A stretch of 61,824 bases of DNA from Candidatus Omnitrophota bacterium (GTDB lineage: Bacteria > Omnitrophota > Gorgyraeia > 2-01-FULL-45-10): NCBI GenBank assembly GCA_041650805.1, contig JBAZKM010000012.1, forward strand, positions 1-61,824. Reading direction: 5' to 3'. The notes below the pieces were generated by a model. It saw nothing but the letters and a program-made list of their open reading frames with translations. It was not told the origin of the DNA and ran no database searches. Both the position numbers and the translations under genes were made by a program. Positions 54,511 to 58,587 of the stretch are shown here, one piece after another (within the stretch, counting starts at the first letter, position 1; every line of letters begins with the position of its first letter).

Positions 54511-54530
54511 ATCAAAACTTTCGGATGGCC
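54511..54530 (+). pseudogene. Possible degenerate relic of the miaB 5' end (IKTFGW)
   Basis: atcaaaactttcggatgg = IKTFGW versus miaB IRTFGC and relic IKTFGC; short, so chance is not excluded. Confidence 0.4.
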
Positions 54531-54655
54531 GTTGGTTACAGTATTACATACTGATCGTACATTTTCTGGACGACGTATATAATAGTGTTTAGTGCTTCAG
54601 ATATAACGAGTTACGAGAATTGAAGGTAGGGGAACCGTACGTAAGTGAAAAATGT

Positions 54656-54757
54656 AGTTACTATACAACATTGGTAATTCACATGTTTGTATAGTAACTT
54701 TTTATTTGACAGAAGTTACCATACAATATACAATACTCTATAGTTTGTATGATAACT
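54656..54757. promoter_or_regulatory. Two tandem inverted-repeat operators (13-18-13 bp)
   Basis: AGTTACTATACAA 54656-68 / TTGTATAGTAACT 54687-99 (perfect); AGTTACCATACAA 54714-26 / TTGTATGATAACT 54745-57 (1 mismatch); period 58 bp. Confidence 0.85.
54706..54734 (+). promoter_or_regulatory. Near-consensus sigma70 promoter of the two-gene cassette
   Basis: TTGACA-17 nt-TACAAT. Confidence 0.8.
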
Positions 54758-54788
54758 ATTTATATGTAAATCCAACGAAGAGGGCGAT

Positions 54789-55106
54789 ATGGCGGCGATA
54801 AAAGGCGTGATGAGGGAAGAGCTTGCAAACTCTCTCCAGATGAAAAAAGACTACGAGAGAGAATTGGCAAAATTGCCCAAGGGGAGCCTTATAAAAAAGA
54901 AAATCAAGGGGCATGAATATTATTACCTCTTAGTGCGTGAAGCCGGCAAGGTAAAGATGAAATATAAAGGCAAGGTATCTGATGATGTCATACAGAAATA
55001 CAAGGAGGTTAAGGAGTACAGGGCAAAATATAGAAAGTTATTATCTCAAGTAAAGAAGCAGATCAGATTCTTAAAAGGAGCTTTACGTGGAAAAGAAGCA
55101 GTATGA
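54789..55106 (+). CDS. Small basic protein, candidate DNA-binding antitoxin/autorepressor
   Basis: 105 aa, Lys/Arg-rich, helix-LPKGSLIKKKIKGHEYYYL..R..GKV..KYKG-helix; overlaps the next gene by 20 nt. Confidence 0.75.
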   Translation: MAAIKGVMREELANSLQMKKDYERELAKLPKGSLIKKKIKGHEYYYLLVREAGKVKMKYKGKVSDDVIQKYKEVKEYRAKYRKLLSQVKKQIRFLKGALRGKEAV

Positions 55107-55770
55107 ATTATGCCTTGCAGTTTTGCGTCGCTTGCGTGATGCCAGCGTGCTGGATGGCATGATAATGATTGGCAGCTGGTGTATCCCTTTCTATGAGGGG
55201 TATTTTGCAGAAGTTAAATATCGTAAAACAATCAGAACAAGGGATGTGGATTTTTTAATCCCGTCTCCCAGTAGTTTCAAAAAAGATGTTAATTTGCCGG
55301 AATTGCTTAAAGATCTCGGCTTTGTAACCGGATATAAAGGATCTAAGGGTTACATAAAGTTAGAGCATCCGGAACTGATGGTGGAGTTTTTAGTGCCGGA
55401 AAGAGGTAAGGGAACGGATGCTCCAATTCAAATACCGCGTTTGGGTATAAATGCAACTGCCTTACGGTATCTTCATTTCTTGTCTGATAATACTATAAAG
55501 GTTAAGGTTGACGATTTCTATCTTACCTTGCCGCATCCCGCCAATTTTGCACTTCATAAGTTGATTATTTTTCAACGCAGACTCAAAGAAGAGAAAGCAG
55601 ATAAAGATAGAAGCGCCGCTATAGAGATATTAAACGCTTTGGCTTCTAAAGGAGATGCTGATTTAGTCAAAGAGGTTTTTGATTCAATGCCGCATAAATG
55701 GCAGATGAAAATTATGAATGCCTTGGCGGAAGCCATGGCAATAGATATACAGAAGATGCTGCAAGTATAA
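55087..55770 (+). CDS. Nucleotidyltransferase-fold protein (GSU2403/NTP_transf_8-like), candidate toxin
   Basis: IGSWC..FY, RTRDVDF (acidic DxD), VEFL.P, P.P..FALHKL..RR..K..KD; AAAGGAG before GTG. Confidence 0.75.
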   Translation: MEKKQYELCLAVLRRLRDASVLDGMIMIGSWCIPFYEGYFAEVKYRKTIRTRDVDFLIPSPSSFKKDVNLPELLKDLGFVTGYKGSKGYIKLEHPELMVEFLVPERGKGTDAPIQIPRLGINATALRYLHFLSDNTIKVKVDDFYLTLPHPANFALHKLIIFQRRLKEEKADKDRSAAIEILNALASKGDADLVKEVFDSMPHKWQMKIMNALAEAMAIDIQKMLQV

Positions 55771-56873: not shown

Positions 56874-56929
56874 TAATATGAGTTATATTCCTCAAGCATG
56901 GTCTAATTCATATAACTTATTGAAACCAT

Positions 56930-56977
56930 ATGACTAAGCCTAGTGTGTACATAAAAACCTTCGGTTGTCAGATATGA
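56930..56977 (+). pseudogene. Relic 5' fragment of a miaB-like gene (MTKPSVYIKTFGCQI*)
   Basis: 15 codons matching the MiaB N-terminal YIRTFGCQM motif but with different synonymous codons from the intact copy. Confidence 0.8.
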
Positions 56978-57004
56978 AAAATATGGTGAAGGTAACGCAG
57001 ACGT

Positions 57005-57267
57005 CTAAACGGCCCAAAATTCTCTCGCCACTGACAACCAAAAGTTCAAGACATGAAAAGAATAGTAAAGTCAGTGCCGGCTTCTAAGCGGCGGTCCAAT
57101 TTCTCGTCGGTGTCAACTCCGAATCCTAAACGGCCCAAAATTCTCTCGCCACTAACGGAGCCGAATTTTAAAACGTGTCCAAAAAATCTGTCGCTCCTTC
57201 GGGAGCTCCACATTTTTTGGACTAAAATTCGGCATGACAACCAAAAGTTCAGGCCATGAAAAGAATA
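57005..57267 (+). repeat. Interrupted direct duplication that includes the miaB start codon
   Basis: 28-bp block ctaaacggcccaaaattctctcgccact at 57005 and 57126; 32-bp block gacaaccaaaagttca(a/g)g(a/c)catgaaaagaata at 57033 and 57236; an 82-bp insert separates the blocks in the second copy. Confidence 0.9.
57160..57233. repeat. Nested palindromic element (REP/MITE-like)
   Basis: gccgaatttta/taaaattcggc, gtccaaaaaat/attttttggac and gctcc-TTCG-ggagc form three stacked perfect stems. Confidence 0.85.
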
Positions 57268-58587
57268 TACATTAGAACTTTTGGTTGTCAAATGAACATC
57301 CGCGACTCGGAGTTCGTGGCGGGACTGCTGCTTGAGGACGGGTTCGCGTTTGCCGATTCTATGGATAAGGCGGACGTCATCCTCTTCAATTCCTGCTCGG
57401 TGAGGAAGCATGCCGAAGACCGTTTATTCAGCAATATCGCGGACCTGAAGAAGCTGAAGAAGAGAAGGCCGGATATCGTCATAGGGCTCATCGGCTGTAC
57501 CGCCCAGAAGTATATGGAGAAGGCGCTTGAAAGGAGCGCTCTCATCGATCTCGTATGCGGCCCGGGCAACGAATGGGAACTGCCGCATATCATAAGGGGG
57601 GTGCTCGATGACAGGTGCACGATAATAGCGGCCGATAAGGTGAATACGGCGAGGCCGGAGCTCTTTCCCGGCTACCGGGAGCACAGGTTCAAATCCTATG
57701 TATCGATAATGGAAGGGTGCGATAACTATTGTTCGTACTGCATAGTCCCGTACGTCAGGGGGCGCGAGCGTTCACGGGAAGAGAAGTCGATATTAAGAGA
57801 GGTCAGGGTGCTGGCGGATGCCGGGTGTAAGGAGATAACGCTCTTGGGGCAGAATGTGAATTCGTACAAAAGTCCACGGTCCACGGTCCACGGTCCACGG
57901 TCAGGATGCGGTTTTGTACGGTTGCTCGAAGAGTTGAATAAGGTGGAAGGTATCGAGAGGATACGGTTCATGACGAGCCATCCGAAGGACGCGTCGGTTA
58001 AACTATTTGAGGCGATGCGTGGCCTCGATAAGGTATGCGAGCACCTGCACCTTCCGCTCCAATCCGGCTCCGACAGGGTACTGCGGGCCATGAACAGGAG
58101 ATACACCGCCAAAAGGTATGCCGGGCTGATAGACGAATATAGGCGGCTCGTCCCGGGAGGTAGCGTTACCACAGATATCATAGTCGGATTCCCTTCTGAA
58201 ACGGAGAGAGATTTTAAAAAGACGGTCTCCATGGTGAAGGGGATAGGTTTCGACGGCGCGTACATCTTCAAGTACTCCCCCCGTCCGCCCGCAAGATCGG
58301 CGGGGCTGAAAGACGATGTGCCTCTGGAGACGAAGGCGAGGCGGCTCCAGGAGCTCCTGGGCCTGCAGTGTGAAATATCGGCCTTGCGCAATGCCCCGCT
58401 TGATGGTAAAGTAGTCGAGGTGTTGGTGGACGGCGAGAGCGATAAGTCGGCTCAATTCCTTGCCGGCAGGACAAGGACCAACAAGGTTGTCGTTTTCAAG
58501 GGTAAGGGGCCTCTTGTCGGCAAGCTGGTGGATGTCAGGATAGAGGTGACGGCACCTCACACGTTGAAAGGGAGATTGGCGGAATGA
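57256..58587 (+). CDS. miaB: tRNA-2-methylthio-N6-dimethylallyladenosine synthase
   Basis: TFGCQMN..DSE, NSCSVR..AE, GCDNYCSYCIVPYVRG, LGQNVNSY, HLPLQSGS, TDIIVGFP, TRAM domain GRTRTNK. Confidence 0.97.
   Translation: MKRIYIRTFGCQMNIRDSEFVAGLLLEDGFAFADSMDKADVILFNSCSVRKHAEDRLFSNIADLKKLKKRRPDIVIGLIGCTAQKYMEKALERSALIDLVCGPGNEWELPHIIRGVLDDRCTIIAADKVNTARPELFPGYREHRFKSYVSIMEGCDNYCSYCIVPYVRGRERSREEKSILREVRVLADAGCKEITLLGQNVNSYKSPRSTVHGPRSGCGFVRLLEELNKVEGIERIRFMTSHPKDASVKLFEAMRGLDKVCEHLHLPLQSGSDRVLRAMNRRYTAKRYAGLIDEYRRLVPGGSVTTDIIVGFPSETERDFKKTVSMVKGIGFDGAYIFKYSPRPPARSAGLKDDVPLETKARRLQELLGLQCEISALRNAPLDGKVVEVLVDGESDKSAQFLAGRTRTNKVVVFKGKGPLVGKLVDVRIEVTAPHTLKGRLAE
57872..57902 (+). repeat. Heptamer tandem repeat (GTCCACG)x4 inside miaB
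   Basis: agtccacggtccacggtccacggtccacggtc encodes SPRSTVHGPRS in the variable loop after GQNVNSY. Confidence 0.9.

Follow-up and report, generated by a model that had tools for sequence, protein, structure and literature searches.

How does the start of a conserved tRNA-modification gene come to be preceded by several older copies of itself, with foreign genes lodged between them? The gene is miaB of an uncultured Candidatus Omnitrophota bacterium, and it lies in the stretch of DNA analysed here, 61,824 nucleotides (nt) of contig JBAZKM010000012.1, which we call the window. Again and again, modules with a miaB start of their own have been set into the gene at its conserved Thr-Phe-Gly-Cys codons, and the earlier start has been left behind. 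A preliminary description of the window had listed relics of the miaB 5' end at 54511, 56930 and 57053 ahead of the intact start at 57256, and all of these are found at those positions; element E and the two-hairpin leader (P1 and P2) had escaped it. From left to right, the array and its borders comprise:

53684 to 54499, forward strand: gene for an S-adenosylmethionine (SAM)-dependent methyltransferase (Pfam Methyltransf_25/31/11), the conserved left neighbour of the array.
54511 to 54527, forward strand: stub 1, a decayed miaB 5' end, ATC AAA ACT TTC GGA TG (IKTFG), which ends after this TG at its junction to element E.
54528 to 54647, forward strand: element E, a conserved non-coding left cassette end (GCCGTTGGTTACAG...TATAAT...GGGGAACCGTACGTAAGTG) that recurs in other contigs.
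56930 to 56977, forward strand: stub 2, MTKPSVYIKTFGCQI followed by a stop codon, detected with a DNA profile; the displaced 5' end of an E-type cassette.
56994 to 57064, forward strand: truncated leader unit, consisting of the P1 5' half, arm 1 and a duplicated start, and cut inside the P2 loop.
57076 to 57117 and 57115 to 57156, forward strand: two more fragments of the P1 5' half, the second of which holds a copy of a 26-nt repeat (57128 to 57153).
57160 to 57233, forward strand: P1, a long hairpin with bulges that belongs to the current leader (DNA fold -24.2 kcal/mol, z -6.8).
57235 to 57290, forward strand: P2, a perfect 16-bp hairpin (arms 57235 to 57250 and 57275 to 57290; DNA fold z -6.45).
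57256 to 58587, forward strand: intact miaB, 443 amino acids (TIGR01574, 478 bits; UPF0004, Radical_SAM and TRAM domains).

Stub 2 (ATG ACT AAG CCT AGT GTG TAC ATA AAA ACC TTC GGT TGT CAG ATA TGA) was scored with a DNA profile built on 26 Omnitrophota miaB 5' ends and reaches E = 6.5e-5 in 289 kb and 5e-4 in 2.2 Mb; its peptide motif has two chance matches in about 1 Mb of other loci. The sequence equivalent to the junction, ACCTTCGGTTG, lies at 56957-56967. Stub 2 departs from the live copy by three synonymous third-position changes (ACC/ACT, TTC/TTT and CAG/CAA), in line with the earlier observation that the relics differ at synonymous sites, and DNA folding indicates that its hairpin potential has been lost. 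Its first 26 nt are 96% identical to a stub in another contig, L183 (6688-6713).

The truncated leader unit contains arm 1 (TGACAACCAAAAGTTC, 57032-57047) and the duplicated start (ATGAAAAGAATA, 57053-57064). The segment 57032-57064 is 94% identical to 57235-57267, ATGAAAAGAATA included, and the P1 5' halves share an exact 26-nt repeat (57007-57032 and 57128-57153). Furthermore, 57076-57106 matches the leader of a related contig, L162, at 30 of 31 positions (E 5e-8), even though the MiaB proteins are just 62% identical. A dispersed repeat or miniature inverted-repeat transposable element was considered and rejected, as no copy of the 26-nt and 16-nt repeats lies in the window outside 56.9-57.3 kb and a model of the leader (R1, below) matches nearly only at miaB starts. 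The flanking copies differ in sequence, so this is not a fresh duplication.

Stub 1 depends on its context. Positions 54511-54528 read ATCAAAACTTTCGGATGG (IKTFGW), just past the methyltransferase stop codon, and on their own they are not significant against the miaB 5'-end profile (6.5 bits, nhmmer E about 2). The relic proposed here earlier is therefore not established by the profile and stands on its surroundings: we accept it as real because it abuts element E, whose copies in L183 (three) and L190 (one) each follow a different miaB stub at the same junction, and because L162 carries an unmistakable stub, ATG-MKKIFVKTFGCQ, at the same position after the same methyltransferase gene. An explanation of stub 1 as a decayed TGC-CAG-ATG was rejected after the L183 copies had revealed its true junction with element E, in which ...TTCGGATG is directly followed by GCCGTTGG. 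Stub 1 and its junction belong to a module common to other genomes, and not every stub was made in this genome.

Element E is 120 nt long, with an invariant -10-like TATAAT at 54578-54583 and GGGGAACCGTACGTAAGTG as its 3' end. Three copies in L183 and one in L169 are 77-87% identical to that of the window; miaB DNA is 67.5% identical between the window and L169, a difference which shows that modules are shared between genomes. A diverged copy occurs in L190. Every copy in L183 is directly preceded by a different miaB stub (..VYAFE; MSNKEIAKKKIFVCTFG; MTNPSVCIKT-G), the junction is identical at all three (TTCGGATG followed by ACCGTTGGTTACAG), and two or three hypothetical genes come next, forming three E-type cassettes in tandem. 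The third of these holds a 71% homologue of a 335-residue cargo protein of the window and then a stub resembling stub 2; L183's own miaB is not on the contig. In L190, the stub MKVFLRTHGC and element E are followed by pfkB, a phosphorylase gene, pyruvate kinase, a P-type ATPase, a GIY-YIG gene and a hairpin-type miaB.

E-type cassettes have a common junction (TTCGGATG followed by RCCGTTGG), with ...AAAACCTTCGGTTG as the right cassette end and RCCGTTGGTTACAG... as the left one. In the window, the 2.5-kb block 3' of the methyltransferase gene has a GC content of 0.33-0.41, against 0.51-0.58 in its flanks. We conclude that this low-GC block is one cassette of a recurring type that consists of element E, genes and its own miaB start. 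Element E has no significant fold by DNA folding and its core is absent from the viral contigs of IMG/VR. An Rfam search of window positions 54000-58000 at E<=1 gave no match, so none for element E or the leader.

Related genomes hold the same kind of array. L162, a contig of a metagenome-assembled genome (MAG; GCA_017993955.1), shares its gene order with the window (FeoB, Na+/H+ exchanger, GIY-YIG, methyltransferase, miaB, TPR/SPOR, miaA, hflX). Its methyltransferase stop codon is followed by ATG-MKKIFVKTFGCQ, 117 nt and the real start MTSKCPHVYIKTFGCQ; the 2.4-kb cassette is absent. This arrangement is repeated in a separate Logan assembly, L163. Further contigs show the following:

L088: a 5.9-kb block between stub and miaB with a PDC-S18-like gene, a type II methylase, a BrxD/mad8-like ATPase and a PIN-like gene; L005 is an unoccupied relative.
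L166: MKKSVYIRAFG and a stop codon, then a module of ~190 nt.
L170: tandem truncated leader units.
L171: a stub separated from miaB by GIY-YIG and methyltransferase genes.
L172: two complete units at a distance of 175 nt.
L173: at least three stubs among HEAT-repeat genes, GIY-YIG, efp and a GIY-YIG 3' remnant.
L179: MPNQESKRSYKFFAPKVFIWTFCW within AT-rich cargo.
L183: four stubs and three tandem E-type cassettes.
L206: a stub at the contig start.

Collecting the miaB upstream regions of relatives, as the preliminary description had proposed, thus yields stubs and variable genes (L162, L166, L170-L173, L179, L088, L183, L190 and L206), the opposite of the constant, relic-free regions that would have spoken against it. 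Its view of the conserved TFGCQ stretch as a recurrent entry point that rebuilds the gene start is borne out. Stub arrays of this kind are present in at least nine other Omnitrophota-type contigs, their cargo ranging from none to 6 kb, and truncated leader units like those of the window occur in L170 and L173. At a strict profile threshold, extra 5'-end copies are found in 5 of 30 hairpin-clade loci versus 1 of 129 other loci; the hairpin-clade figure rises to about 10 when stubs that are clear by eye are counted. The arrays also contain a second kind of miaB fragment, the part right of the junction (ATGAACGNNCGNGAY, MNxRD) followed by ATTTTKG, at L183 1946-1961 and L179 ~1200-1225 (minus strand); it fits no model tested.

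All of these loci are metagenome assemblies, and chimeric joins of strain variants in assembly or binning could be held responsible for the arrays. We regard such an artefact as extremely improbable. The independent ENA contig L081 is 100% identical to the window across 54376-61737 and contains the same array, just as L163 repeats the arrangement of L162, which largely disposes of the contig-join error that had been raised as a possible refutation. The copies differ in sequence and thus are not collapsed or duplicated reads, and the architecture is seen in at least 10 contigs that come from separate studies and were built with different assemblers. In favour of an artefact, L081 departs from the window in its first 440 nt alone: all 37 differences lie within 53952-54375 (L081 1-437), the 3' part of the methyltransferase gene. 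Identity thus has its edge at 54376, ~125 nt to the left of stub 1, and this edge resembles a boundary of recombination between strains; alternatively, it could be strain mixing at the contig end. Close relatives were also considered as empty sites and set aside, since the nearest MiaB proteins, labelled Omnitrophota, are <=68% identical and the same-species contigs L081 and L216 give no alternative arrangement.

The present start is embedded in the two-hairpin leader. The 3' arm of P2 is made of the TFGCQ codons, and the miaB ATG (57256) sits in the loop. The covariance model of P1 and P2 (R1) matches the window at 57153-57293 with 100 bits, and in 361 kb it matches just miaB starts, save one P1-only copy in L166. 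Two degenerate palindrome patterns recovered the P2 hairpin at miaB in ~28 other loci, mostly labelled Omnitrophota/Planctomycetia, and the positions left unconstrained are complementary in most of them. Across P1 and P2, 94.9% of cells are paired and 28 of 41 pairs show compensatory changes; double-sided changes amount to 191 cells versus 50 in shuffles, with none of 500 shuffles as high. Searches of Rfam at E<=0.1 in seven related loci gave no leader match. The P1/P2 leader is a real, undescribed element.

The cells include 813 Watson-Crick, 10 G-U and 26 A-C combinations, and in 17 of 19 loci the antisense strand of the leader folds no less well than the sense strand. The scarcity of G-U pairs leans towards a DNA-level role or towards concerted change of the arms by template switching. 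A different account would make the leader a cis-regulatory or mRNA-processing element (start sequestration or an RNase III-type site), the stubs debris of palindrome instability through replication slippage, template switching and breakage, and the cargo a separate arrival by ordinary island insertion into a permissive intergenic region. The very strong covariation, a start codon at the P2 base or in its loop, partial units truncated in P1 or P2 loops and the many loci with intact P1 and P2 without any stub (L164, L165, L168, L169, L177, L178 and L180-L182) suit this account, and template switching perfects quasi-palindromes (PMC7202029), which could keep the arms complementary without selection. 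We nevertheless consider it improbable. It fails on stubs of different alleles, such as MSNKEIAKKKIFVCTFG versus MTNPSV... in L183 and MPNQESKRSYKFF... in L179, and it leaves unexplained the shared element E at cassette left ends, the same cargo family at miaB in different genomes, and the hairpin-free L088 and E-type ends. In addition, near-absent G-U pairs are unusual for a selected RNA, and Rfam holds no match.

The hairpin was also considered as an obligatory part of the insertion site. This was rejected, as the E-type ends, stub 2 and L088 are without it; E-type cassette ends and stub 2 show no fold (z -0.4 to +0.1).

Hairpins of this kind turn up in a few other settings. At L166 3264-3345, a P1-type bulged hairpin without P2 lies between miaA and an extra carbamoyltransferase-like gene, which breaks the miaA-hflX synteny of the window and L162; it is possible that P1 also marks insertion boundaries elsewhere. 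A hairpin of an upstream arm with the miaB TFGC codons is also seen outside Omnitrophota, in L197 (1675-1711, Corynebacteriaceae, imperfect), L191 (Elusimicrobia) and L196 (a Nitrospirota-labelled MAG); the motif may have more than one origin, or the labels of these bins may not be trustworthy. When one P1 subtype was searched for as an exact pattern, just L166 and five chance-level matches in unrelated phyla came up. Both hairpin patterns are absent from IMG/VR, where the sole match, L210, is an unrelated coding palindrome.

The positions of the joints bear on how the modules were placed. In six junctions, the break follows ACNTTYGGNTG to the nucleotide: that of window stub 1, three in L183 and those of L166 and L179. 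The L190 junction lies at the equivalent place. The miaB-like sequence is retained a few bases further in L162, L172, window stub 2, L173 and L206, and to +35-38 in L171, L088 and the last L183 stub; beyond the Thr codon, stub length varies between 11 and about 38 nt. The incomplete leader units break off in the P2 loop at window 57064 and in L170 and L173, and in the P1 loop at window 57156 and in L172. The E-type junction corresponds to a position 3 nt inside the P2 3' arm. Since stub ends cluster near GGNTG yet reach +38 nt, homology-dependent joints fit better than a single fixed cleavage site.

We favour a 5'-end displacement array built by homology-anchored recombination with no dedicated local enzyme, and put its probability at roughly one half. 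Each module would have a miaB leader of its own and the first 10-15 codons of the gene as its end and would recombine with the resident gene inside the near-invariant ACN-TTY-GGN-TG(Y), which encodes Thr-Phe-Gly-Cys, the Cys being the first cysteine of the N-terminal iron-sulphur (Fe-S) cluster. The module copy would become the new gene start, so that miaB stays intact, and the old start would be pushed upstream as a dead stub along with the cargo of the module. The long miaB body would serve as the right anchor and the short conserved stretch as the left joint. A stub in a donor array could itself act as left joint, and whole stub-to-miaB segments would then move between genomes with their junctions preserved. 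The L081 identity edge inside the methyltransferase gene suggests such exchange by flanking homology.

At least three rounds would have taken place in the window, where stubs and truncated units are co-oriented and in the order expected of displacement. In the first, an E-type cassette would have displaced the start after the methyltransferase gene, creating stub 1 and supplying the start MTKPSVYIKTFGC. One or two small cargo-less leader modules, now truncated, would then have displaced that start, which became stub 2. The current module (P1, P2 and MKRIYIRTFGCQ) would have provided the present start in a third round. Elsewhere, cargo often consists of genes that are normal upstream of a donor miaB (GIY-YIG, methyltransferase, efp and metabolic genes), which fits copying of the donor's upstream region.

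Several points weigh against this reading. The conserved stretch shared by diverged alleles amounts to just ~11-35 nt with imperfect identity, a short match by the standards of RecA-type recombination. Of the six element E copies, five begin at exactly the same nucleotide after different stub alleles; this fixed start and the three tandem cassettes of L183 look like site-specific insertion, although an inherited junction also explains them. We know of no natural transformation or other DNA uptake route for Omnitrophota. With the closest MiaB relatives as distant as noted above, we found no donor and recipient pair near enough for the reconstruction of one event.

These points lead to a dedicated, sequence- or structure-directed cassette system, which we consider possible though doubtful. 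Circles would be inserted within the Cys codon, between TG and Y, by a trans-acting enzyme, either a recombinase or nuclease encoded elsewhere or the small GIY-YIG neighbour, with miaB as an integron- or Xer-like platform site. The left end of a cassette would be element E or a related RCCGTTGGT... core, and the right end the miaB leader and codons up to ...GGNTG. This would account for the identical junction of TTCGGATG and RCCGTTGG after different stubs (three in L183, the window and L190), for the breaks of L179 and L166 that also follow GGNTG, and for the uniform tandem cassettes of L183, each with E, 2-3 genes and a stub. Cargo-less mini-modules (L162, 117 nt; L172, 175 nt; L166, about 190 nt) agree with it as well. 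So do the junction inside the P2 arm, the near-perfect Watson-Crick palindromes of P1 and P2, as expected of a DNA-level site, and the GIY-YIG gene upstream of miaB in 17 Omnitrophota-type loci. It is opposed by the lack of a recombinase in any locus scanned, by E-type junctions, stub 2 and L088, which show that the hairpin is not required, by variable stub lengths and units cut in hairpin loops, and by the lack of attC-type RYYYAAC/GTTRRRY cores. The cargo, furthermore, includes ordinary housekeeping genes (efp, pyruvate kinase and P-type ATPase).

Pfam scans found no integrase or transposase among the open reading frames (ORFs) of the window between 23 and 61 kb, and no integrase, transposase or recombinase among most cargo ORFs of L088, L190, L169 and L183, in keeping with the earlier statement that no integrase is adjacent. 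The attC cores were sought in P1 and P2 by inspection only, and none was seen. The GIY-YIG gene of the window (51892-52194) belongs to a small family of ~90-125 residues. With or without the methyltransferase gene, it is present in the miaB-upstream region of 17 distinct Omnitrophota-type loci (among them the window, L164, L165, L168-L173, L176, L177, L180-L182 and L190) and of no other lineage fetched. Every hairpin-type locus where this could be checked has it, and its 3'-end remnants travel with duplicated leaders in L173 and apparently in L172.

We speculate that the locus could be an integrase-less, integron-like capture platform, a tentative idea in which element E is a portable promoter, each cassette brings a replacement miaB start, and insertion uses a single, fixed bond in the codon for the first Fe-S cysteine. 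Its enzyme would act in trans and may be a GIY-YIG nuclease working on the P1/P2 DNA hairpins. If so, miaB itself would serve as attI and be rebuilt by every insertion.

In the window, the cassette contains:

54645 to 54668 and 54687 to 54710: inverted repeat with 24-nt arms in front of the cargo operon.
54706 to 54734, forward strand: near-consensus promoter-like TTGACA-17-TACAAT directly upstream of the DUF6788/NTP_transf_8 pair.
54789 to 55106, forward strand: cargo gene 1, DUF6788 (PF20586).
55087 to 55770, forward strand: cargo gene 2, NTP_transf_8 nucleotidyltransferase (PF12281, E 1.5e-23), overlapping gene 1.
55866 to 56873, forward strand: cargo gene 3, a 335-residue protein of a sporadic family in defence-island-type contexts.

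Judged by sequence, the inverted repeat and promoter look like an autoregulated toxin-antitoxin-type promoter/operator, and genes 1 and 2 would form a toxin-antitoxin-like pair; PADLOC gave no match for the pair. The two genes have a GC content of 0.36-0.41 (flanks, 0.51-0.58). The 335-residue protein has no match in Pfam, NCBIfam or PADLOC and 137 homologues spread over phyla. A 69% homologue is encoded one gene upstream of miaB in a contig from ERZ1426817 (gene list only), so two genomes have the family upstream of miaB, and L183 has it within its stub-flanked array. More distant homologues adjoin SIR2_2, HipA or HEPN genes, and the gene looks like a defence-island gene. Cargo was also tried as a guide to arrays and discarded, since homologues of ~53-63% (L184-L186 and L217-L225) lie in defence-type contexts without stubs or element E.

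Upstream of the array, the window encodes the GIY-YIG protein, a Na+/H+ exchanger and the methyltransferase. Orthologues of the latter (66-81% amino acid identity) lie directly upstream of miaB in L162, L171 and L175 and within the miaB-upstream region in L173 and L179. On its other side, miaB is followed by a TPR/SPOR gene, miaA and hflX. The window has no tRNA genes that could serve as targets, and a σ70 scan of 56.9-57.25 kb returned no clear miaB promoter. Within the miaB coding sequence, a perfect tandem of two GTCCACGGTCCACG units at 57872-57899 is probably trivial. Three consecutive very large ORFs (2558, 1496 and 2988 amino acids) occupy 2176-23265 on the minus strand; Omnitrophota typically have giant genes.

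About 34 of 120 Omnitrophota MiaB entries (~30%) are called from the Met after TFGCQ (MN.RDSE...) and drop the first Fe-S cluster cysteine. The window protein P0001 is one such case, annotated at 57292-58587. In the loci read for late gene calls (window and L082), the DNA encodes the full MiaB start. The late starts are probably an annotation artefact tied to the hairpin and a weak ribosome-binding site.

If the displacement reading is correct, the start of a conserved tRNA-modification gene serves a whole uncultured phylum as a permanent gateway for accessory DNA, namely toxin-antitoxin, restriction-modification, other defence and even metabolic genes, with no integrase beside it. This would extend the logic of displacement arrays from 3' toxin tips to the 5' end of a housekeeping gene. 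Stubs coding for TFGC, element E and the P1/P2 hairpins provide a signature for finding arrays in metagenomes, and the latter two define conserved non-coding elements without a described family. The work also flags the late MiaB starts as an annotation problem in Omnitrophota. Finally, it makes a testable prediction on whether gene capture can be directed time and again by nothing more than short conserved coding motifs.

Among known systems, integrons and clusters of attC sites lacking integron-integrases (CALINs) likewise place co-oriented cassettes at one platform site and push older ones away from it, can form integrase-free arrays and commonly carry toxin-antitoxin cargo; as in integrons, the junction of hairpin-type modules lies near the 3' base of a hairpin. 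In contrast to them, the miaB arrays have no intI, no attC cores on inspection and unstructured E-type junctions, their cassettes bear a promoter-like element, and the platform lies inside an essential-type coding sequence that is rebuilt each time. Judged by this inspection, they are neither integrons nor CALINs. The term integron-like, used in the preliminary description, holds for a co-oriented, cassette-like array and is otherwise an analogy, given the missing attC cores, unstructured E junctions, variable stubs and some truncated leader units. Quasi-palindrome template-switch hotspots (PMC7202029) resemble the leader in their near-perfect inverted repeats, concerted arm changes and truncations in loops; they make point changes or short conversions and neither import kilobases nor produce stubs of different alleles.

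Islands that target a gene's 5' end are known at dusA (DAI integrase family; PMC4482086) and prfC (SXT/R391 integrative and conjugative elements; PMC2791158), and the MiaB-like rimO has been mentioned as a target in Polaromonas (PMC4482086). Our literature search found no report of miaB as a 5'-end insertion site, consistent with the earlier remark that no system is described there. As in the dusA and prfC islands, integration hits the conserved 5' end of a gene for tRNA modification or translation, the element brings a new 5' end that keeps the gene functional, an old 5' remnant is left and defence and toxin-antitoxin cargo is carried. Replacement of the 5' end is evident in the stubs at 54511-54527 and 56930-56977, the gene at 57256 and the comparators L162 and L005. 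Those islands carry a tyrosine integrase beside the target and excise as circles, whereas no integrase was found at the miaB loci scanned; miaB modules, moreover, go down to ~120 nt, and their stubs are stacked and vary in length.

Serial stubs of an anchor gene with foreign genes and no recombinase are known from Rhs loci, from the orphan cdiA-CT/cdiI modules of contact-dependent growth inhibition (CDI), as well as from Vibrio type VI secretion system (T6SS) arrays. For these, homology-facilitated illegitimate recombination in conserved coding sequence, followed by spread through homologous recombination, has been proposed (PMC5361080). The window, L173 and L183 show the same pattern of serial co-oriented stubs and foreign genes without a recombinase. 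The Rhs, CDI and T6SS arrays displace a 3' toxin tip downstream and keep immunity genes under selection, whereas the cargo of the miaB arrays is unrelated to miaB function. Here a housekeeping 5' end is displaced upstream, and whatever arrives has to supply a promoter, a start codon and an Fe-S ligand anew.

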